Under the pieces are notes generated by a model that saw nothing but the letters and a program-made list of their open reading frames with translations, was not told the origin of the DNA and searched no databases. Both the position numbers and the translations under genes were made by a program. From an uncultured Candidatus Saccharibacteria bacterium (lineage in GTDB: Bacteria > Patescibacteriota > Saccharimonadia > Saccharimonadales > CAYUUR01), in NCBI GenBank assembly GCA_964448075.1, contig CAYUUR010000001.1, forward strand, positions 1,785 through 65,784: DNA of 64,000 nt. The letters run 5' to 3'. Positions 15,209 through 63,991 of this stretch are shown one piece after another (the first letter of the stretch is position 1; the number at the start of each line of letters is the position of its first letter).

Positions 15209-15237
15209 ATTATACCGAAGTTAATCTTCAAAGTCAA
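15209..15237 (-). promoter_or_regulatory. sigma70-type promoter of rplJL
   Basis: Minus strand TTGACT (15232-15237), 17-nt spacer, TATAAT (15209-15214). Confidence 0.6.
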
Positions 15238-15500
15238 AGGTTTCGCATACGCTCAACTTTAGCACGCAAAGCTGGTGGTAGCTCATCAAGTACACGTGGC
15301 GGGCTTACGTTAGCGCCTTGCATGGCTGTAGAGCCGTCCGTTCGGGCTGGCTCTTCGGTTTCTGGGCGTTCCATCTCAACTGCGTTAAGGCCATTGCTTG
15401 GCACAAAATTGCCGCGCATAAGCGGAACGGCTGGCCGATCGCGCATCAAGGACTCGGCGAGTCTTTCAAACTCTGGTGTGTGTTCTGGATTGTTGTCCAT
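15234..15500 (-). CDS. hypothetical small acidic protein (88 aa)
   Basis: ATG preceded by SD AGGAGAG; no recognisable domain. Confidence 0.45.
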   Translation of the reverse strand: MDNNPEHTPEFERLAESLMRDRPAVPLMRGNFVPSNGLNAVEMERPETEEPARTDGSTAMQGANVSPPRVLDELPPALRAKVERMRNL

Positions 15501-15670: not shown

Positions 15671-16150
15671 TCAAGCCGGCAACTCAGCACGCATTGTGTC
15701 GAACTCTACTGCTGCCTCACGGACCACTCGTGAGTACAGACTATATACTGCATCAGCTTCTTCCATGATCATTATGCCCTGGGTTGCTCTTATGCGTGCT
15801 GCTTCGACTACTCGTTCATAGTCCTGAGATACGTTGAGTTTAGCTCCGCTATCGCGAATGTCTACTTCGCTTGCACATGCCTCTACGTAGGCTACTACCT
15901 CACAGAACTCGTGAGAATTAGTCTCGGCAATTTCAATAATCAATGGATCGTCGTTGCGTATGTGTTTCGGTTCCTTAGAGCCAAACTCTAATGTGGGCTT
16001 CATGCTGCCACGTTGTACAAACATGCTGTAGATGGTTCTGTCAGTGAACCTTATATGGATCGATGGCGTTATGATCTCTTTGATTGGTCCTATGTCTGTA
16101 GGGTCAATGTCGTGAAACTGTTCCCATCGTTTTTCTCTTGTTTCTATCAT
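15671..16150 (-). CDS. hypothetical protein (159 aa)
   Basis: ATG with strong SD (AAGGAGAcuacaaATG); own terminator; no recognisable domain. Confidence 0.55.
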   Translation of the reverse strand: MIETREKRWEQFHDIDPTDIGPIKEIITPSIHIRFTDRTIYSMFVQRGSMKPTLEFGSKEPKHIRNDDPLIIEIAETNSHEFCEVVAYVEACASEVDIRDSGAKLNVSQDYERVVEAARIRATQGIMIMEEADAVYSLYSRVVREAAVEFDTMRAELPA

Positions 16151-20201: not shown

Positions 20202-21164
20202 CTATGAGTTAGCAATTTCGCTGACGGCAAGCTTCATGCTCGGACCCATCGCTGTAGTTACATATGCGGCTTTGACATATGAACCTTTAATAGAAGATGG
20301 CTTAGCGGCACGAATACTTGTGGCTACGGCCTGTGCATTCTCTAGGAGCTTTTCAGGGCCAAAACTAACTTTGCCGATTCCCAGGTGTACAATTCCCGTT
20401 GTATCGACACGGAACTCAACACGACCGGCCTGTGCATCCTTGACGCCTTTTACTACGTCGGTTGTGACAGTACCACTCTTTGGGTTTGGCATAAGTCCTT
20501 TAGGACCGAGCACACGAGCGTACTTACCAAGCTTACCCATCATCTGTGGTGTGGCAATAAGTACGTCAAAATCGAAGGTGCCTTTATCAAGTAGTTTTGT
20601 TACGGCTTCTTCGCCAGAAATATCTGCGCCGGCTTTTTTAGCTGCTGCAGCATCTTCAGAGTCAGCAAAAACAGCAATCTTCACTGTCTTGCCAGTTCCG
20701 GCTGGCAGTGCCACGATATCACGGATATTTTGATCTGCATGACGTGGGTCTACACCGAGGTTGATGTGGAGTTCTACGGTTGCATCAAACTTGACTGGGC
20801 TTGTTTTGGTAGCCAGTGTCAAAGCTTCTTTGAGCGTGTATTCTTTTTCAGCATCGACAAGCTTAGCAAGTTCACGGTACTTTTTGCTCTTGCGTTCTAG
20901 TTGGCTTTTGGGCGGGTTTTGCTTCTGTTTTGGCTTTGCCTCTGCGTCAGCTTCAGATTTCTCTGCTTTTCGTGCTTCTTTTGCTTCCTTTTCTTCAGCT
21001 TCTTTAGCGGCTTTAGCACTTCGCTTACCGGCTTTAGCGGTAGCTTTTTCTTCAGTAGCTTCTTCTACTGGTTCAGTAGTTTCAACGACGGTTTCCTCGA
21101 TGGGAGTTACTACGGTTTCTTTGATCTCTTCATTTTTAGTGGTTTTCTTCTTGGCTTCTGCCAT
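20202..21164 (-). CDS. rplA: 50S ribosomal protein L1 with ~90-aa Lys/Glu/Ala-rich N-terminal extension
   Basis: 320 aa; L1 core from about residue 92 (KKYRELAKLVD...); N-terminal low-complexity tail. Confidence 0.93.
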   Translation of the reverse strand: MAEAKKKTTKNEEIKETVVTPIEETVVETTEPVEEATEEKATAKAGKRSAKAAKEAEEKEAKEARKAEKSEADAEAKPKQKQNPPKSQLERKSKKYRELAKLVDAEKEYTLKEALTLATKTSPVKFDATVELHINLGVDPRHADQNIRDIVALPAGTGKTVKIAVFADSEDAAAAKKAGADISGEEAVTKLLDKGTFDFDVLIATPQMMGKLGKYARVLGPKGLMPNPKSGTVTTDVVKGVKDAQAGRVEFRVDTTGIVHLGIGKVSFGPEKLLENAQAVATSIRAAKPSSIKGSYVKAAYVTTAMGPSMKLAVSEIANS

Positions 21165-21529: not shown

Positions 21530-21871
21530 TTATTTATCTGGGCTAAGTCTGTCTGATATCCCGTACTCCGCACAAAGTGCGTCCGCCGCGTCATCGTGAC
21601 CCAGAGCTCTCTGTTGCCAGATTTCACCAACTTTCCTGTCGAAGTCATCAATATATGTAGGTTCTAGTACGGGAACTTCGTGGTGAGAAATGAAGTAACC
21701 GAGACCAGTGGGGGTTCGAAGGACCTTAACGTCGCGTGTGCCCTCAGGATTGACTAACTCGATTGATGCGGCAAAGACATCTGGCTGTTGCATGTCGATG
21801 TCGACAACCGTATGAGGGTTTAGCTCAGTTAACTGAATTGTGCTGTCGTAAGGAGATAGACGTCCATCCAT
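21530..21871 (-). CDS. hypothetical small acidic protein (113 aa), translationally coupled to rplK
   Basis: ATG lies 3 nt after the rplK stop (TAA ATT ATG); no recognisable domain. Confidence 0.5.
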   Translation of the reverse strand: MDGRLSPYDSTIQLTELNPHTVVDIDMQQPDVFAASIELVNPEGTRDVKVLRTPTGLGYFISHHEVPVLEPTYIDDFDRKVGEIWQQRALGHDDAADALCAEYGISDRLSPDK

Positions 21872-22374: not shown

Positions 22375-22668
22375 CTACACTTCACCCCTGTTGTCTACTC
22401 TTATGCCAAGGATCTCATCTATCGTTATAAGATCCTCTCGCAATGATTCTACTTGCGCAGAGCTCACGGCACTAACACAGCCCAAAAGCAAGTTAACTTG
22501 TTGACGAACAAGCGCTCGTTCTTCAGCAGTAGTTCCTGCTTCATCCGCGTGATTGTCATCCCAAACAAGTTCACGATTGATACCTTCGATCGTCTCTAGA
22601 CCTTGCCGTAAACTAAAGCAAGCGCCATGCAGTCGTTCGAGTTTGTTTCGAGTCTGTTCTGACCCCAT
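22375..22668 (-). CDS. hypothetical small acidic protein (97 aa), translationally coupled to nusG
   Basis: ATG lies 3 nt after the nusG stop (TAA ACT ATG); fills the nusG-rplK spacer; no recognisable domain. Confidence 0.5.
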   Translation of the reverse strand: MGSEQTRNKLERLHGACFSLRQGLETIEGINRELVWDDNHADEAGTTAEERALVRQQVNLLLGCVSAVSSAQVESLREDLITIDEILGIRVDNRGEV

Positions 22669-56759: not shown

Positions 56760-57035
56760 CTATATAACAATATGGAGGCCGAGGGGGAGCCAGAAGCTAA
56801 TGAAGGCCGACATCAAGAGAATAGCGTAGCCAATCTTTTTGTCGAGCTGTAAACGCTCGTGACGCAGTAATACTACACCAGCTAGCAGACCAATTGGTAT
56901 GGGTATTTGTGCTCCACTACTAGTGACAATGCGTAGCCAGAACGATCCTAGTACGAGGTAAACGACGAGTTTTAGAAAGTATATACTGTCTACTTCTTTG
57001 GTTCGTGTTTGTTTTGTTTTTGTTTTACTCGGCAT
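56760..57035 (-). CDS. hypothetical small membrane protein (91 aa) between rpsJ and rplC
   Basis: Three hydrophobic segments after a basic N-terminus; no SD. Confidence 0.4.
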   Translation of the reverse strand: MPSKTKTKQTRTKEVDSIYFLKLVVYLVLGSFWLRIVTSSGAQIPIPIGLLAGVVLLRHERLQLDKKIGYAILLMSAFISFWLPLGLHIVI

Positions 57036-57083: not shown

Positions 57084-57779
57084 TTAACTATTGGTAGGAC
57101 CGGTCAAATAATGATGCAAAGTTTCATCGCTCAGTACATCGTTTGCTAGTACTTCTGCCTCATGTCGCATGGCTCTCGTTGCACTATCCAACCTGAAAAC
57201 TCGGCTGAAGTTGCCAAACTGAGCCTTATCTACCTCATGGCTGAGCCTCTCGGTATGTGCGATCGAGGCCATATACGCGATAGAATGTGAATACACACGC
57301 GCTGTACTCCTTCGGTAACTACTGTGCGGTTCGGACCCAACGAGTGCCAGTAGTTTCCAGTGCCCACGACCGGCGATATCTTGAGCTGACGAACGAGCAT
57401 TTGCCATGATAGTATCCTCAATCGTTTCATGTGTTGCCACTGACTGAAGAAGCCCATTGACGGTGCTGAAGTAGCGGCGCCGTTCACTGATACTGGCCAT
57501 CATTTTTCTTCCGAGCATGAGTCCAACTATTGCGCCAGTGACGAATGCAGCTCCAGATTGTGACATCAACGTCGGGTCGTCTTCATGTTTTTCTGATGCC
57601 CCACTCAATGTTACACGTAAATAATATGGCACCTTCTGCCAGTTGTAATTTGCATACTCAATACTACCCTTTTTTGCAACAGCATCAATAATCGACTCGC
57701 AAGCATTGTCAAATTCAAACTGAACGTTATCTAATGCTCGTTGAGTTGGCATTGTTCCAAGAATTTCTAAATCAGACAT
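57084..57779 (-). CDS. hypothetical protein (231 aa) between rpsJ and rplC
   Basis: Longest ORF in the 1.29-kb rpsJ-rplC spacer; ATG start, no SD; one central hydrophobic segment; no recognisable domain. Confidence 0.45.
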
Positions 57780-57833: not shown

Positions 57834-58175
57834 CTACATCTTTATTTCGGCATCACAGCCGGCAGGAAGCGAAAGATTCATTAGTGAATCAATTGTCTTT
57901 GGTGTTGGCTCTAACACATCGATAATACGTTTGTGTACACGCATTTCAAACTGTTCACGGCCTTTTTTATAAACGTGCGGGCTCTTAACAACAGTGTAAG
58001 TTGTTTTCTTGGTTGGAAGTGGGATTGGCCCAGCAATTGTTGCACCGGTACGGATTGCTGTATCAACAATCTGCTTAGCAGACTGATCGATTACTTTGTG
58101 ATCATATGCCTTAAGACGGATACGGATCTTTTGCTTACCGTCTTTCTTTTCTAGTGGTTTTTTGGCGTCAGCCAT
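57834..58175 (-). CDS. rpsJ: 30S ribosomal protein S10
   Basis: 113 aa; [17 protein letters not shown] typical of S10. Confidence 0.97.
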
Positions 58176-58386
58176 GATGTGCTCCTTTCATGAGCACTAG
58201 GGCGGAGGGGGAAGGATGAAGGGTGGAGGTTTTCCTCATTCCCTTTTGCCTTAGCCCTTAGCCCTAGTCTGTGATGTAACATCTCCGTAAGTGCTATAGA
58301 GAGCCCTGTACGACGACTTTTAGTCATCACGATTAGTTTGTAATACAATCCTACAACAATAATCAATTTTTGTGAAGGATCTTCTG
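58176..58386 (-). promoter_or_regulatory. long structured rpsJ 5' leader
   Basis: 211 nt. Hairpin GTGCTC-ATGAAAG-GAGCAC overlaps the SD (58179-58197). A pyrimidine tract with two CCTCC faces the tandem GGGCTAAGGGCTAAGG. Confidence 0.4.
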
Positions 58387-58821
58387 TTAAGTGATACTAG
58401 ATGCAGCCTCTAATGTGCGCTGCCTTTCACTTCGCTCAATGCCATAGCGTTTATCAAGTGTATGTCGCGGCCCGCCTTGAAAAGCATTATATGCCGATAG
58501 TGCGTAGTTAAGTGCGCGCTTACCAACTAAGTGACACCTGTCATATCTGCCGTAGTAGTATCCACTGGTATCGATATTGAAGTATCTCTCTTGTCGCAGC
58601 GTTTCAACTTCATGAAGTGTTACACCTTCATCATCTGCGAGCTGCCTGAATATGTAGCCACTAAGTTCATATGCAACATCATTGGCGAGGGCTATTTCAC
58701 CGTTGTCGATAAGTTCTGTAGCTTTCTGAATAGTTTCAGCTAAACCACATTCTTGACTAGCAATCTCCTCAATACTAGTTCGTATGAGTCCCGCCTGGCT
58801 ATCACGCGAATAATAGGTCAT
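58387..58821 (-). CDS. hypothetical protein (144 aa) between tuf and rpsJ
   Basis: ATG with SD AAGGAGA; no recognisable domain. Confidence 0.5.
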   Translation of the reverse strand: MTYYSRDSQAGLIRTSIEEIASQECGLAETIQKATELIDNGEIALANDVAYELSGYIFRQLADDEGVTLHEVETLRQERYFNIDTSGYYYGRYDRCHLVGKRALNYALSAYNAFQGGPRHTLDKRYGIERSERQRTLEAASSIT

Positions 58822-58963
58822 GTTTTCTCCTTAAGATCGTCTGAAATATATACAAAAGTAGCGATAAACGCAAGCACAAGCATAATCAGAACACTTTGCG
58901 TGGTGGTTTTAGATAGAGCTCGGGTTTTTCAAGCGTGTTATGCAGTGTTAGTAACCGATAATG

Positions 58964-58998
58964 AAAAAGGAGCTGTACTTAGCGTATAGCTCCTTTTT
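58964..58998 (-). terminator. intrinsic terminator after tuf (bidirectional shape)
   Basis: AAAAAGGAGCT ... AGCTCCTTTTT, 50 nt after the tuf stop. Confidence 0.65.
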
Positions 58999-59047
58999 CT
59001 GTCGCAGGTCTTATCCTGCAGTGTGCCCTGGTAAAGGGGCGAGATCG

Positions 59048-60229
59048 CTACTTGTTGATCTTGGTAACAACACCAGCACCTACGGTACGGCCACCTTCGC
59101 GGATAGCGAAGCGTAGACCCTGTTCCATAGCGATTGGTGCAAGCAGTTTAACCTTGAAGGTTACTGTGTCGCCCGGCATGACCATTTCTTTGTCAGCTGG
59201 GAGTTCAACCTCACCAGTTACGTCCGTAGTACGGAAGTAGAACTGTGGCTTGTAGCCCTTGAAGAATGGTGTGTGACGACCGCCTTCATCCTTAGTGAGG
59301 ATATAGACTTCTGCATCAAACTCAGTGTGAGGAGTGATTGAACCAGGCTTAGCCAAAACTTGGCCGCGCTCGATGTCATCACGCTCAATACCACGAAGCA
59401 AGATACCAGCGTTATCACCAGCTTGTCCTTGATCAAGAGATTTCTTGAACATTTCGATGCCAGTTACAACTGATTTCTTGGTGTCGCGGACACCAGTAAT
59501 TTCAACTTCGTCGTTAACTTTAACGATACCCTGTTCAATACGGCCAGTAGCAACAGTGCCACGACCTTTGATTGAGAAGACGTCTTCGATAGCCATCATG
59601 AAAGGCTTGTCGAGGTCGCGCTTAGGCTCTTCAACATAGTCATCCATAGCTTTGATCAGTTCCATGATTGCATCTTCGTTAGCTGCATCGCCTTCGAGTG
59701 CCTTGGTAGCTGAACCCTTGATGATTGGAGCATCTTCGTCAAAACCGTTCTTAGCGAGCAGTTCACGAATGTCCATTTCAACTAGTTCGATGAGTTCTGG
59801 ATCAGCAAGATCCATCTTGTTCATGAATACAAGAATCTTAGGTACGCCCACTTGCTTAGCAAGAAGTACGTGTTCACGAGTCTGAGGCAACGGACCGTCG
59901 TTAGCGGCAACCACGAGGATAGCACCATCGATCTGCGCAGCACCGGTAATCATGTTCTTCACATAGTCGGCGTGACCTGGCATGTCAACGTGCGCGTAGT
60001 GGCGCTTTTCTGATTCATATTCTTGGTGAGAAGTCGCAATGGTAATACCACGTGCTTTCTCTTCTGGGGCGTTGTCAATCTGATCATACGCAATTGGTTT
60101 GTTAACGTCGCTCGGTAGCTTTTTAGCTAGTACAGCGGTGATAGCAGCCGTAAGTGTCGTTTTACCGTGGTCAACGTGACCCATAGTACCTACGTTTACA
60201 TGCGGCTTGCTTCGGTCAAAATCTGCCAT
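59048..60229 (-). CDS. tuf: elongation factor Tu
   Basis: 393 aa; [22 protein letters not shown] GTPase motifs. Confidence 0.98.
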
Positions 60230-60380
60230 GTAGATTTGTCTCCTATTATTAGTTCATTATTTTATCGCGGTCCATGTCACATCAATAGCAACGCCCTCTC
60301 GCGAGTACATCAATAATCTTACCTGTTAGTCGGTCTTTTGTAAAGAGTTTTAACGTCAGTTTAGGAAGTGCACAAGTATA

Positions 60381-60791
60381 TTATTGAGCTGCCAATATTT
60401 GCACACAAAACCGTTCTTCTAGTTCTTGTTGTGCAGTCATGGTTCTATCAAGAGCTAGACGCTCATAGTCATTCACCATGAATTGAGGCATTTTTACAGT
60501 AGGAATAGATTCGTTGTCTGATGATACAGGTAAACCAAGCCAGATATACTGATTACTTACAGCAGTACTACAGCGTCGAAGCGTATCAGCACATTCTCGA
60601 TCTGGAATATAGTGAGCAGCTTCAATCTGTCTTTTGACCAGTTGTCTACTTAGCCACAAACCCATTGTGAACGTTGACTGTTCCCGATCGTAGCTCGTAT
60701 ATGCAAAGTAAATAACTGCATGACCACTGTAGCCTGGCTCTATGCTACGGAATCGTTCGGCGCTAATCTCGGTAAACTTGTCGCGAAGCAT
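60381..60791 (-). CDS. hypothetical protein (136 aa) between fusA and tuf
   Basis: ATG 5 nt after the fusA stop (TAG TAAGC ATG); no recognisable domain. Confidence 0.5.
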   Translation of the reverse strand: MLRDKFTEISAERFRSIEPGYSGHAVIYFAYTSYDREQSTFTMGLWLSRQLVKRQIEAAHYIPDRECADTLRRCSTAVSNQYIWLGLPVSSDNESIPTVKMPQFMVNDYERLALDRTMTAQQELEERFCVQILAAQ

Positions 60792-60796
60792 GCTTA

Positions 60797-62884
60797 CTAC
60801 TTGGCGTTTTTGGCAATGATAGCTTCTGTGACGTTTGGTGGAACGTCTTCGTAGTGGTCAAGCTCCATACTTGAACTCGCACGACCTTGCGTCATTGAAC
60901 GCAGGTTGGTGGTGTAACCAAACATTTCACCAAGTGGTACAAAGGCAGTGATTTCTTTAACGCCGCTGGAAAGGTCTTCCATAGACTCGATGCGTCCACG
61001 CTTACTGTTGAGGTCACCAATGACATCGCCCATGAACTCTTCAGGTGTTACGGCAACAACCTTCATGATAGGTTCAAGGAGTACTGGCTTAGCAACCTTC
61101 ACACCAGCTTGCAGTGCCATAGAGCCAGCAATCTTAAAGGCCATTTCGTTTGAGTCAACGTCGTGGTAGCTTCCGTCGTACAGTTCTGCCTTGATATCAA
61201 CAACAGGGTATCCGGCGATAACACCGTTAGACATTGCCTCGATGATACCTTGCTCAACTGGCTTGATGTATTCACTTGGGACAACTCCACCCTTGATAGA
61301 GTTAATGAACTCAAAGCCTTTACCAGCTTCGTTCTGAGACAGGCGAAGCCAAACGTGACCGTACTGACCACGTCCACCAGATTGCTTGACGAACTTACCT
61401 TCAATTTCAACAGCGTCTTTGCGGATAGTTTCACGGTAGGCAACCTGTGGTTGACCAATGTTGGCCTCGACATTGAACTCGCGCTTCATACGGTCAACGA
61501 GAATTTCGAGGTGAAGCTCACCCATACCAGAGATAATTGTCTGGCCTGTTTCTTCGTCAACACGAACACGGAAAGTTGGATCTTCCTCTGCAAGACGCTG
61601 CAATGCTAGGCTCATCTTCTCTTGGTCAGCCTTTGTCTTTGGTTCGATTGCAATGCTGACAGGCGGTTCAGGGAATGTAATGCTCTCAAGCACAATAGGA
61701 TCATTGATTTCACAAAGTGTGTTACCAGTTGTTGTACCCTTAAGGCCAACGATGGCAGCGATATCACCAGCACCGATTTCAGTAACGTCTTCACGCTTGT
61801 CAGCTTGCAGACGTACAATACGGCCGATGCGTTCTTTGCTACCCGTAGAACTGTTCAGAATATATGACCCAGCTACGAGCTTACCTGAGTAAACACGGAA
61901 GTAAGCCAGCTTACCAACAAAAGGATCAGTTGTGATCTTAAAGGCCAGCGCTGCAAAAGGATCAGATTCGCTTGGCTTTCGCTCAATTTCATCACCAGTC
62001 TTTGGGTGCGTGCCCCAGGTAGAACCAACGTCAAGTGGGCTTGGCAGGTAGTCATTAACCATATCGAGTACTTTTTCTACGATAACGCCACGGCCATCGC
62101 CCCCAGTTACGGCAAAGAACTTACCTGATAGCACAGCGGTACGGATAGCTTGCTTGATTTCATCAGTTGACAGACCTTCTTCACCGACTTCAAAGAACTT
62201 CTCCATCATGGCTTCGTCTTCTGCGACGGCATTTTCTATCAGCAGGCTGCGGTATTTCTTGGCCTTGTCGAGCATATCTTCTGGGATTTCACCCTCAATC
62301 AGCTCTTTATCGGTGAAGTCTTTGTAGGTGTATGCCTTCATTTCGACGAGGTCAATTACACCGTTGATGGCTTGTTCAAAACCAATTGGCAAATGCACAG
62401 GGAATGCGTGTTTGCTGAGGCGGTTATGGATAGAGTCGAGAGACTTGTAGAAGTCACCACCCGTTTGGTTGATTTTGTTGATGAAACAAATACGTGGGAC
62501 TTTGTACTTGTCAGCTTGGCGCCAGACAGTTTCAGATTGTGATTCAACACCCATCTTACCGTCAAAGACCACACACGCACCATCAAGCACACGTAGTGAA
62601 CGCTCAACTTCAACGGTGAAGTCGATGTGACCAGGAGTATCGATAATGTTAATCTGGTTACTCTTCCAGTAACAAGTCACTGAAGCAGCCACGATAGTAA
62701 TACCGCGCTCGCGCTCTTGTGCCATCCAGTCGGTTGTTGTCTCACCTTCGTGCACTGCACCGATCTTGTGGTTCAAACCAGTACGGTAGAGGATACCTTC
62801 TGTAGTGGTAGTTTTACCGGCATCAATGTGCGCGATAATACCGAGGTTCCTAATATCTTTCATTGGTGTTGTTTTTGCCGCCAT
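60797..62884 (-). CDS. fusA: elongation factor G
   Basis: 695 aa; AHIDAGKTTTTE, DTPGHIDF motifs, five-domain EF-G length. Confidence 0.98.
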   Translation of the reverse strand: MAAKTTPMKDIRNLGIIAHIDAGKTTTTEGILYRTGLNHKIGAVHEGETTTDWMAQERERGITIVAASVTCYWKSNQINIIDTPGHIDFTVEVERSLRVLDGACVVFDGKMGVESQSETVWRQADKYKVPRICFINKINQTGGDFYKSLDSIHNRLSKHAFPVHLPIGFEQAINGVIDLVEMKAYTYKDFTDKELIEGEIPEDMLDKAKKYRSLLIENAVAEDEAMMEKFFEVGEEGLSTDEIKQAIRTAVLSGKFFAVTGGDGRGVIVEKVLDMVNDYLPSPLDVGSTWGTHPKTGDEIERKPSESDPFAALAFKITTDPFVGKLAYFRVYSGKLVAGSYILNSSTGSKERIGRIVRLQADKREDVTEIGAGDIAAIVGLKGTTTGNTLCEINDPIVLESITFPEPPVSIAIEPKTKADQEKMSLALQRLAEEDPTFRVRVDEETGQTIISGMGELHLEILVDRMKREFNVEANIGQPQVAYRETIRKDAVEIEGKFVKQSGGRGQYGHVWLRLSQNEAGKGFEFINSIKGGVVPSEYIKPVEQGIIEAMSNGVIAGYPVVDIKAELYDGSYHDVDSNEMAFKIAGSMALQAGVKVAKPVLLEPIMKVVAVTPEEFMGDVIGDLNSKRGRIESMEDLSSGVKEITAFVPLGEMFGYTTNLRSMTQGRASSSMELDHYEDVPPNVTEAIIAKNAK

Positions 62885-62887
62885 TCT

Positions 62888-63346
62888 CTATCCCTCTTTC
62901 TGTTCGTTCGTAATGCTCTTGTATTGTGTTGCGAGTGTTTCTAATCGTTGTTGAGTACCTTCAGCACCATCTGCCATTTGGCTTCTGTAGGCTAGGCTGT
63001 ATGCAAGGGTGTCCCAGACGGCCTCTTCGGCTGCGAAAACATCATTAGTAGACAGGTCGAGTGCTGAATCAAGATCAACACGTACACTGTCCCTAACGAC
63101 AGACTTGGCCAGCGCCATATACAACTCTGAAGGCGAATCAACGGATTCTTTCTCAAAGAGTTCTTCAGCAAGCTGCATCCATCTGGTTTTGTTTATTGCA
63201 ATCTCAGCCACTCTATTGTGCCACACCGCTTTCTGCATCTTGTGGCACGCCAGCGTATGGTGACGCTTCGTACAAGAAGTCAACATTTGCAACTGGTCCG
63301 TAGTCTCTGAAGACTTCGATAGCGTCATCTCGGACATCGACGTCAT
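62888..63346 (-). CDS. hypothetical acidic protein (96-152 aa) between rpsG and fusA; start uncertain
   Basis: Stop lies 3 nt before the fusA ATG. The longest form overlaps the 99-aa ORF by 134 nt; internal ATGs at 63238 and 63178. Confidence 0.45.
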   Translation of the reverse strand: MTSMSEMTLSKSSETTDQLQMLTSCTKRHHTLACHKMQKAVWHNRVAEIAINKTRWMQLAEELFEKESVDSPSELYMALAKSVVRDSVRVDLDSALDLSTNDVFAAEEAVWDTLAYSLAYRSQMADGAEGTQQRLETLATQYKSITNEQKEG

Positions 63347-63512
63347 CTACCACCCAAGCACGGACAGTGTCAAAGCCTTCTACCTGGAATGGATTCTGTG
63401 GTCGATACCTTAGTGCATCGACTACAAACAGCTCACCACAAGCAGCTTCATTGAACATTCCTTGGTCGCCGATACTGAGGAGATCTGCTGATACTTTTGT
63501 TTCAAACGCCAT
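63213..63512 (-). CDS. hypothetical acidic protein (99 aa), translationally coupled to rpsG
   Basis: ATG 2 nt after the rpsG stop (TAA TC ATG); no recognisable domain. Confidence 0.5.
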   Translation of the reverse strand: MAFETKVSADLLSIGDQGMFNEAACGELFVVDALRYRPQNPFQVEGFDTVRAWVVDDVDVRDDAIEVFRDYGPVANVDFLYEASPYAGVPQDAESGVAQ

Positions 63513-63514
63513 GA

Positions 63515-63991
63515 TTATCTCGCAAAGTGAGCAAAGGCTCGGTTAGCTTCAGCCATCTTGTGTGTGTCTTCACGCTTCTTAACGGCTGTTCCTGTGTTGT
63601 TGTAGGCGTCCATAAGCTCTGCAGCAATGCGGTCTTCCATGCTCATACCTTTTTTGGCGCGAGCAGCAGCAACAAACCACATCATGGTGAGGTGATTCTG
63701 GCGTTGGCCCTTAACTTCAAAAGGAATCTGGTAGTTCGCACCACCAACGCGGCGAGAACGAGTCTCAACCTGCGGCTGAATGTTCTTCATAGCTTGTTCA
63801 AACACATCAAGTGGGTTCTGCACCTTGAGCTTATCGGCAGCTTTTTGCATACCACCATAGACAAGTCGTTCAGCAAGCTGCTTCTTACCGTTAAGCATGA
63901 CGCGGTTAATAAGACGCTGGACCTGTACAGAGTTGTACACGCGGTCAGCTGGGATATCTCGCACGAGTGATTTGGTTACTTTTCTAGGCAT
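63515..63991 (-). CDS. rpsG: 30S ribosomal protein S7
   Basis: 158 aa; MPRKVTKSLVRDIPADRVYNS typical of S7. Confidence 0.97.
   Translation of the reverse strand: MPRKVTKSLVRDIPADRVYNSVQVQRLINRVMLNGKKQLAERLVYGGMQKAADKLKVQNPLDVFEQAMKNIQPQVETRSRRVGGANYQIPFEVKGQRQNHLTMMWFVAAARAKKGMSMEDRIAAELMDAYNNTGTAVKKREDTHKMAEANRAFAHFAR

Follow-up and report, generated by a model that had tools for sequence, protein, structure and literature searches.

We describe here a set of small genes at the junctions between translation genes in a 64,000-nucleotide (nt) stretch of DNA from an uncultured Candidatus Saccharibacteria bacterium, called the window throughout. The str and S10 operons, in which these junctions lie, have a textbook invariant gene order and form the backbone of phylogenomic marker sets. 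In the window the order on the minus strand, on which all genes and signals of this locus are given, is rpsG, orfA, orfB, fusA, orfC, tuf, orfD, rpsJ, orfE, orfF, rplC. The slots are framed by rpsG (63515..63991), which encodes ribosomal protein S7, is the upstream anchor of slot 1 and is 98% identical to a gene with the Pfam domain Ribosomal_S7 in the related contig L176; by fusA (60797..62884; EF-G) between slots 1 and 2, whose homologue in L171 carries the Pfam EF-G domains; by tuf (59048..60229; EF-Tu) between slots 2 and 3, whose protein cluster is named elongation factor Tu; and by rpsJ (57834..58175; S10), the downstream anchor, whose protein cluster is named ribosomal protein S10. The EF-Tu and S10 clusters also bear the name of Candidatus Saccharibacteria. 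Slot 1 holds orfA (63213..63512; 99 amino acids (aa), isoelectric point (pI) 4.05), a lineage-specific orphan, and the acidic orfB (62888..63211; 107 aa with its limits as revised here). Slot 2 holds orfC (60381..60791; 136 aa), a member of a new small protein family, and slot 3 holds orfD (58387..58821; 144 aa, pI 5.1), an orphan specific to this strain lineage. The same phenomenon extends beyond the coordinates of the first-pass annotation of this DNA into the rpsJ-rplC slot, which contains orfE (57084..57779; 231 aa) and orfF (56760..57035; 91 aa), the latter a small hydrophobic protein encoded just upstream of rplC. That annotation had also pointed to rpsJ/rplC and nusG/rplK/rplA as further cases; we recover both, the second as nusG, 97 aa, rplK, 113 aa, rplA with 3-nt spacings. 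Window junctions inside the S10, spc and alpha operons are compact.

Several non-coding signals accompany these genes. The spacer between orfC and tuf (60230..60380) is conserved, being 98% identical to the closest relative, L084, over 151 nt, and contains a promoter-like site, TTTACA-17-TAAGAT, together with the tuf Shine-Dalgarno sequence. An intrinsic terminator 3' of tuf (58963..58999) was recognised from an inverted repeat (I2) and from its fold energy; it has a 12-bp stem and a U run, and the 93-nt region folds at -38.1 kcal/mol (z = -6.3). The right-hand border of slot 3 is a conserved non-coding region 5' of rpsJ (58270..58358; 94% identical to L084 and 88% to L176), upstream of which the DNA is unrelated in both of these relatives. 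This region is probably a promoter or leader of rpsJ. Between it and the rpsJ Shine-Dalgarno sequence, at 58176-58270, we see a near-perfect hairpin of about 75 nt (-42.6 kcal/mol, z = -4.8) that is present in a single copy in the window and absent in L084 and L176; either a small palindromic element that has inserted here or a regulatory stem particular to this lineage would fit.

The first-pass annotation had stated that every rpsG, fusA, tuf and rpsJ junction is occupied by a co-directional open reading frame (ORF), and the spacings that it gave are exact: the orfA ATG lies 2 nt past the rpsG stop, the orfB stop 3 nt before the fusA ATG and the orfC ATG 5 nt past the fusA stop. Neither orfA nor orfC has a Shine-Dalgarno sequence. 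In agreement with its earlier description as a 144-aa ORF with a strong Shine-Dalgarno sequence downstream of the tuf terminator, orfD has AAGGAG 5 nt 5' of its ATG and starts 226 nt past the tuf stop, beyond the terminator described above. At the window junctions the longest co-directional ORF equals or exceeds 99.5-100% of shuffles. Scored by codon log-likelihood, with 39 long genes of the window as the training set (training mean 0.19), orfA to orfF reach 0.23, 0.24, 0.10, 0.17, 0.12 and 0.19 in their own frames, and all five other frames are negative for each of them. Ratios of nonsynonymous to synonymous divergence (dN/dS), one of the checks that had been proposed, are 0.16 for orfB, 0.13 for orfE, 0.035 for orfF and 0.10 for orfC (against L084), as expected under purifying selection. 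The junction ORFs are protein-coding genes. As had been claimed, they resemble neither one another (maximum z 2.7) nor any known family: searches with the six window orphans of Pfam, NCBIfam, PHROGs and PADLOC gave no significant match. Where "most" had been called acidic, all four of orfA to orfD are (pI 4.05-5.4). The sole match to orfD among 5.8 billion clusters is orfD itself, and it has no relatives in viral contigs or phage genomes. Three assemblies of this organism have the orfA product annotated as a protein, and it forms a singleton cluster; no homologue was found by exact-cluster look-up, by tblastn against about 180 loci or by a search of PDB sequences. By comparison, orfF (pI 10.2, with a hydrophobic segment) is clade-wide, with homologues in L002, L003, L004, L024, L084, L095, L097, L104 and L176.

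The limits of orfB required revision. Gene callers make it 96 aa, and the earlier range was 96-152 aa, of which the position of the stop, 3 nt before the fusA ATG, stands and the length does not. Its 90% cluster includes a 107-aa member, P0055, which is 93.5% identical and lies between rpsG and fusA in three independent assemblies; this homologue came from cluster look-up, a pattern scan of metagenome contigs having returned no relatives. Because of the alignment with P0055 we set orfB at 107 aa (63211-62888), starting at a GTG 1 nt past the orfA stop, again without a Shine-Dalgarno sequence. Under the 152-aa reading, the stretch shared with orfA has a non-coding score when read in the frame of orfB. 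We also considered orfA and orfB as a single frameshifted gene and rejected this, orfB being complete on its own in L176. An 8-bp perfect inverted repeat, GTGCCACA...TGTGGCAC (63215-63245, minus strand), spans the end of orfA just 5' of the orfB GTG; it folds no better than shuffles (z = -1.4).

Comparison with L084 (a further contig, L175, is from the same strain as the window) places highly conserved genes beside poorly conserved or unrelated ones. The EF-G, EF-Tu, S10, L3 and L4 proteins are 99-100% identical between the two genomes, orfC is 73% identical and orfE, whose homologue occupies the same site, 66%. Identity falls at the fusA stop and returns at the orfC stop. Downstream of tuf, nothing of the orfD segment (59047-58359) remains in L084, which has in its place unrelated DNA that brings an 82-aa ORF and a terminator and Shine-Dalgarno sequence of its own. 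Immediately before rplC, about 165 nt are the same in L084, and the rpsJ-orfE spacer is only 57% identical. Synonymous divergence (dS) from L084 is about 1.6 for orfC and orfE as against 0.15-0.38 for the flanks. L084 also has an extra 90-aa ORF between orfF and rplC (L084:4684-4956), a singleton with a weak DUF202-like match that the window lacks, which is another gene-sized difference between near-identical flanks.

In L176, EF-G, S7 and S10 are 97%, 98% and 99% identical to those of the window, and orfB is present, but orfA is absent: exactly 297 nt (63508-63212) are missing, which places orfB 6 nt past rpsG. The same block is missing in L177 and L178, and the rpsG-orfB-fusA junction of L176 is identical in three assemblies. 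At most 5 nt of microhomology (ATGGC) are found at the orfA site, and the arrangement fits a deletion in L176 equally well. An unrelated 236-aa gene occupies the place of orfC in L176, the tuf-rpsJ junction is empty (about 180 nt, without orfD), and an unrelated 155-aa gene stands where orfE does in the window. What a slot contains differs between species and even between the nearest relatives, through gains and losses the size of a gene and through replacement by non-homologous genes, and the histories of the slot genes are decoupled from those of their flanks.

The window and L176 also share a tract of about 1 kb that is centred on orfB and extends into fusA, in two lineages whose synonymous sites are otherwise saturated. 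The tract (62138..63211) covers orfB and roughly the first 250 codons of fusA. The proportion of synonymous differences (pS) between the two genomes is 0.51 and 0.46 in the two halves of rpsG and drops to 0.155 in orfB. Along fusA, in blocks of 89 codons, it is 0.27, 0.39 and 0.45 over codons 1-267 and 0.72, 0.81 and 0.61 over codons 268-534. These are Nei-Gojobori estimates, which are rough near saturation. Synonymous divergence in orfB differs from that in rpsG and fusA with Fisher p = 1.3e-9. A maximum chi-square scan of nucleotide identity delimits a low-divergence segment from 63796, inside rpsG, to 62138 (7.6% versus 17.9%), which was reached in 0 of 200 permutations; the left limit that we give for the tract, 63211 at the rpsG/orfB junction, is set by the block pS values and not by the start of this segment. 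In nine control comparisons pS was uniformly saturated along fusA, with no 5' dip or 5'-3' gradient. If inherited vertically, an orphan with weaker codon bias should diverge more at synonymous sites than S7 and EF-G, and we therefore read orfB plus the 5' part of fusA as a recombination import between lineages that are otherwise well separated.

We fetched 160 loci around fusA from genomes and metagenomes and mapped the junctions in 27 related Saccharimonadales genomes, with an EF-G identity of 78% or more as the threshold; the nearest EF-G genes all come from Saccharimonadales metagenome bins. Counting a gap of at least 250 nt as an enlarged junction, rpsG-fusA is enlarged in 14 of 21 genomes, fusA-tuf in 14 of 20, tuf-rpsJ in 8 of 15 and rpsJ-rplC in 9 of 10, or about two thirds of cases over the four junctions; junctions in the S10 interior, from rplC to rpsC, are enlarged in none of 19 observations. 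In 37 of 39 enlarged junctions the longest ORF runs in the same direction as the operon (binomial p = 2.8e-9); it has a median of 129 codons as against 55 on the opposite strand, and exceeds 99% of shuffles in 32 of the 39. Occupancy is variable and turns over between near relatives, which the synteny check proposed by the first-pass annotation was meant to score. One subclade (L006, L009, L091, L092) has compact, empty junctions throughout, and in L004 the rpsG-fusA junction is 2 nt long. Both the 27-genome table and the comparison of the window with L084 and L176 show that a given pair of core genes encloses different genes in related genomes.

Five recognisable families occur among the occupants: orfF-like, orfC-like, orfE-like, a 145/150-aa pair and a 333/337-aa pair. 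All other occupants are unique, and BLASTP, HMM searches (hidden Markov models), hhalign, shuffled Smith-Waterman, phmmer and all-frame tblastn revealed no hidden homology among them. When about 28 slot proteins of relatives were compared with Pfam, a few proved to be enzymes (Acyl_transf_1, alpha/beta hydrolase, GDSL lipase, UPF0047) and the rest had no match. Slot proteins are more acidic than the other proteins of the window (median pI 5.5 versus 7.7, p = 0.0013), and in the rpsG-fusA slot 14 of 15 have a pI below 6. In 11 of 14 genomes the first gene of that slot starts 1-3 nt past the rpsG stop. The first-pass annotation had taken its 2-5-nt spacings as those of translationally coupled genes, a reasonable suggestion that this comparison strengthens. 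Slot-1 proteins of L001, L005, L008, L089, L090, L099, L100 and L171 have CxxC-type cysteine pairs and yet cannot be aligned; together with the Cys-rich 72/76-aa proteins described below, they hint at small metal-binding proteins and at reshuffling within the slot. In more distant Saccharibacteria (L011, L013-L016 and L028, with EF-G about 70% identical), the gaps on either side of fusA, towards rpsG and towards tuf, are as long as 2-5.6 kb and contain several larger ORFs, which suggests that the str operon has been progressively broken up in the Saccharibacteria phylum.

The orfC gene has four homologues at 53-74% identity, and a profile search of 1.84 billion representatives adds eight at 24-39%, giving a family of at least 13 members, with homologues of 117-150 aa. 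In each context recovered the gene lies between fusA and tuf, starting 0-5 nt past the fusA stop except in L174, where a 76-aa Cys-rich ORF intervenes. Invariant positions include G44-L45-W46, H60 and E123-L-E-x-R-F128. An AlphaFold model built from 13 sequences predicts a confident alpha/beta fold (pLDDT, the predicted local distance difference test, 85; pTM, the predicted template-modelling score, 0.81); a run on 5 sequences (pLDDT 40) was discarded in its favour. A Foldseek comparison of the model with the PDB and BFVD gave no significant match (best E = 0.18). We take orfC to represent a new protein family; neither of the two structure libraries searched contains a match to its predicted fold. 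The nearest non-significant matches, which we mention as leads only, are human phosphohistidine phosphatase PHPT1 (Foldseek E = 0.18, TM 0.38-0.44) and YKR043C, a yeast protein with the histidine-phosphatase fold (E = 0.066); within the family His60 is invariant and Asp64 nearly so. A Cys-rich protein of 72/76 aa adjoins the orfC-family gene in two contigs, after it in L171 (3153-3371) and before it in L174 (280-510).

We think it rather probable, with considerable room for doubt, that in this Saccharimonadales clade the four junctions along rpsG/fusA/tuf/rpsJ/rplC are permissive slots for accessory genes, which are swapped by homologous recombination in the ultra-conserved genes around them and expressed as part of the operon. 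DNA would enter by natural transformation and recombine through the flanking genes, which would serve as homology arms because they are the only sequences still similar enough across species. A double crossover would then swap slot content, while a gene could be added by one homologous anchor and an illegitimate join, that is, by homology-facilitated illegitimate recombination. Published work lends this support: Saccharibacteria are naturally competent and integrate linear DNA by homologous recombination through homology arms of about 1 kb (PMC10633639), hotspots that lack mobile elements and have recombining core flanks are over-represented in transformable bacteria (PMC5635113), and homology-facilitated illegitimate recombination requires just one homologous anchor (PMC3240628). 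Once in place, orfA, orfB and orfC may share the transcript of the str operon and depend on termination-reinitiation for their translation, which we propose because they lack Shine-Dalgarno sequences and start 1-5 nt past the preceding stop; orfD may be expressed partly on its own signals, namely its own Shine-Dalgarno sequence and perhaps its own promoter. These proteins, which are soluble, acidic and mutually unrelated, are probably diverse and dispensable and not a dedicated set of translation accessories.

Several observations weigh against such accessory slots. The gene status of orfA and orfD rests on composition and signals, because neither has a homologue. A single recombination tract has been demonstrated, in one pair of genomes; the relatives are without exception metagenome contigs, and the fusA and tuf of L176 contain indel errors. 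The high dS of orfC and orfE relative to L084 could reflect codon bias instead of allele exchange, because dS tracks the coding-bias score across seven genes, although the comparison with L176 removes this ambiguity. An EF-G neighbour-joining bootstrap tree, intended as a test of the patchiness of orfC, has an unresolved backbone, and the patchy distribution is for this reason inseparable from repeated loss. The uniform start past rpsG and the shared acidity of slot 1 also fit one ancestral gene that has diverged beyond recognition. Finally, no competence genes are among the ten window proteins scanned, competence being known from other Saccharibacteria.

A different account, which we regard as fairly unlikely, is that the slot genes are vertically inherited, very fast-evolving translation partners, for example acidic proteins that chaperone basic ribosomal proteins or EF-G or help in their assembly, kept beside their partners for stoichiometric, coupled expression and seemingly non-homologous through divergence beyond recognition. 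Starts 1-5 nt past the rpsG, fusA, nusG and rplK stops, with the first of these so uniform across genomes, are what one might expect of such proteins, as is their acidity both overall and in slot 1, and the orfC family is always tied to fusA, yet falls to 27% identity at 85% EF-G identity. In Patescibacteria, moreover, ribosome biogenesis factors are about half as numerous as usual (PMC12641178). But the junctions are compact and empty in L006, L009, L091, L092 and L004, and the same slots elsewhere hold enzymes unconnected with translation. In L176 an unrelated gene replaces orfC, even though L087 and L088, which do have orfC, are more distant from the window than this genome (EF-G 97%). Proteins in the same slot show no residual similarity beyond the named families, and the synonymous divergence of orfB is far below that of its flanks. 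No known translation factor, ribosomal protein or biogenesis protein was matched in Pfam or NCBIfam, nor any PDB sequence below E = 0.06. The first-pass annotation had listed lineage-specific translation accessory proteins as a possible explanation, and this fares poorly given empty junctions, mostly unrelated occupants and some ordinary enzymes. It had also raised gene birth in the spacers, by which orfA, orfD and many of the unique occupants would be de novo genes from highly transcribed DNA. The location does guarantee transcription, orfD stands alone in 5.8 billion clusters, orfA, orfD and most other window orphans are in singleton clusters, and most slot ORFs of relatives are unique. Even so, a de novo origin seems quite improbable to us: the nearest relatives have no non-coding counterpart from which such genes could have come, the orfA block being absent in L176-L178 and the orfD segment replaced in L084 and absent in L176, and all-frame tblastn between slots found no homology in shifted frames. 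The genes have native codon usage, specific to their frame. Furthermore orfB and orfC, which seem just as orphaned, turn out to have homologues under purifying selection, and the orfC model has a confident fold.

The precision of the gene-sized insertions amid highly conserved genes, and a shared tract around orfB that resembles co-conversion of flanks, bring to mind classic selfish or mobile systems, such as homing endonucleases, integron cassettes, insertion sequences, toxin-antitoxin pairs or phage remnants. We consider these very unlikely here. Neither the window orphans nor the roughly 28 slot proteins of relatives contain nuclease, integrase or transposase domains, and toxin and defence domains were not found either; the slot borders have no direct or inverted repeats and no attC-like element, the inverted repeats between 56.5 and 64 kb consisting only of the tuf terminator and chance pairs. 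As noted, orfD has no viral-contig or phage relatives, and orfC has no viral fold match. What stands of the earlier suggestion of cassette-like selfish genes is the cassette-like gain, loss and replacement, together with the orfB tract, and what falls is the selfish machinery and any border repeats. The notion that the ORFs are frames left open by chance in long spacers without coding function, to which the missing Shine-Dalgarno sequences of orfA, orfB and orfC and the missing homologues of orfA and orfD lend some colour, is scarcely credible to us and is refuted for orfB and orfC: ORF lengths beat shuffles, the strand bias is clade-wide (37 of 39), coding scores are frame-specific, orfB, orfC, orfE and orfF are under purifying selection, and the orfC family has conserved lengths and motifs.

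The best-supported reading is that the slots are a new variant among core-flanked hotspots of horizontal gene transfer, embedded in the str and S10 operons. They share with the mobile-element-free hotspots of Oliveira et al. 2017 (PMC5635113) variable content amid fixed core genes, rapid turnover, a lack of integrases and other mobile-element genes, evidence, from one tract, of recombination in a flanking core gene and membership of a transformable phylum. They differ in lying inside the str and S10 ribosomal operons and not between operons, in having one or two small genes per slot, and in being flanked by the genome's most conserved genes; our evidence, too, comes from a few metagenome contigs and not from a population analysis. 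Because the slot genes are joined to their neighbours by 1-5 nt, they would be expressed as part of the operon. Homology-facilitated illegitimate recombination (PMC3240628), with foreign DNA added beside one homologous anchor, would explain accretion beside fusA, tuf and rpsG as well as the precise 297-nt orfA difference that borders the orfB-fusA tract.

Genes that do not encode ribosomal proteins are familiar residents of ribosomal operons: secY, adk, map and infA have long resided in the spc operon, and ybxF is resident in the Bacillus str operon. A gene without known function lies between rpsR and rplI in Pseudomonadales (PMC9132574). Such extra genes are co-transcribed with ribosomal protein genes, as we propose for the slot genes, and some, like the latter, are lineage-restricted and of unassigned function. 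They are, however, stable and conserved across orders or phyla, whereas the slot occupants change from one species to another and even where the flanks are nearly identical. The free-standing homing endonuclease genes of T4-like phages likewise form gene-sized insertions amid conserved genes with co-transfer of flanks, but no slot gene has a GIY-YIG, HNH, LAGLIDADG or similar nuclease domain. Integron cassettes differ in that we find no attC-type repeats between 56.5 and 64 kb and no integrase domain in Pfam or NCBIfam searches. Gammaproteobacteria have multigene insertions between concatenated translation operons (Brandis et al. 2019, PMC6735719). These resemble our case in that the rpoBC-str-S10-spc supercluster is interrupted in some lineages. 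There, however, the insertions lie between entire operons and have been rare events over long timescales, whereas in Saccharimonadales most members of one clade carry single small genes at junctions between adjacent genes, inside operons as well as between them. We found no prior description of orphan genes at ribosomal-operon junctions in Saccharibacteria in the literature searched.

If slot content is indeed exchanged in this way, the junctions offer a concrete and testable route by which new genes could gain expression and spread in regulator-poor genomes. They are also a warning that in Saccharibacteria the marker genes fusA, tuf and rps can be mosaics. With four slots, dozens of unrelated small proteins and the orfC family, they make a compact natural system for studying the origin and function of orphan genes in transformable organisms. 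More tentatively, and with a good deal of doubt, we speculate that in ultra-small competent bacteria the str, S10 and nusG-rplK junctions are the main platform for the entry, expression and interspecies spread of orphan genes, because only ultra-conserved genes keep homology across species and the operon would supply transcription and coupled translation free. Were this true, the conservation of translation genes would itself create a shared system for exchanging accessory genes inside ribosomal operons.

Elsewhere in the window, small orphans also accompany other ribosomal protein genes. On the minus strand, the 97-aa ORF at 22375-22668 starts 3 nt past the nusG stop and the 113-aa ORF at 21530-21871 starts 3 nt past the rplK stop; both are acidic orphans in singleton clusters, with a geometry like that of orfA and orfC. 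In this genome rplJ-rplL lie apart from rplK-rplA. Upstream of rplJ-rplL and of the L10 leader (Rfam RF00557, 15081-15214) are two more minus-strand orphan ORFs, of 88 aa (15234-15500) and 159 aa (15671-16150), which are acidic and have no Pfam match. The rplA ORF itself (20202-21164, minus strand; 320 aa) is preceded by a 366-nt non-coding gap; its L1 domain is restricted to residues 120-308, and its N-terminal 95 or so residues form a low-complexity extension rich in Lys, Glu and Ala.

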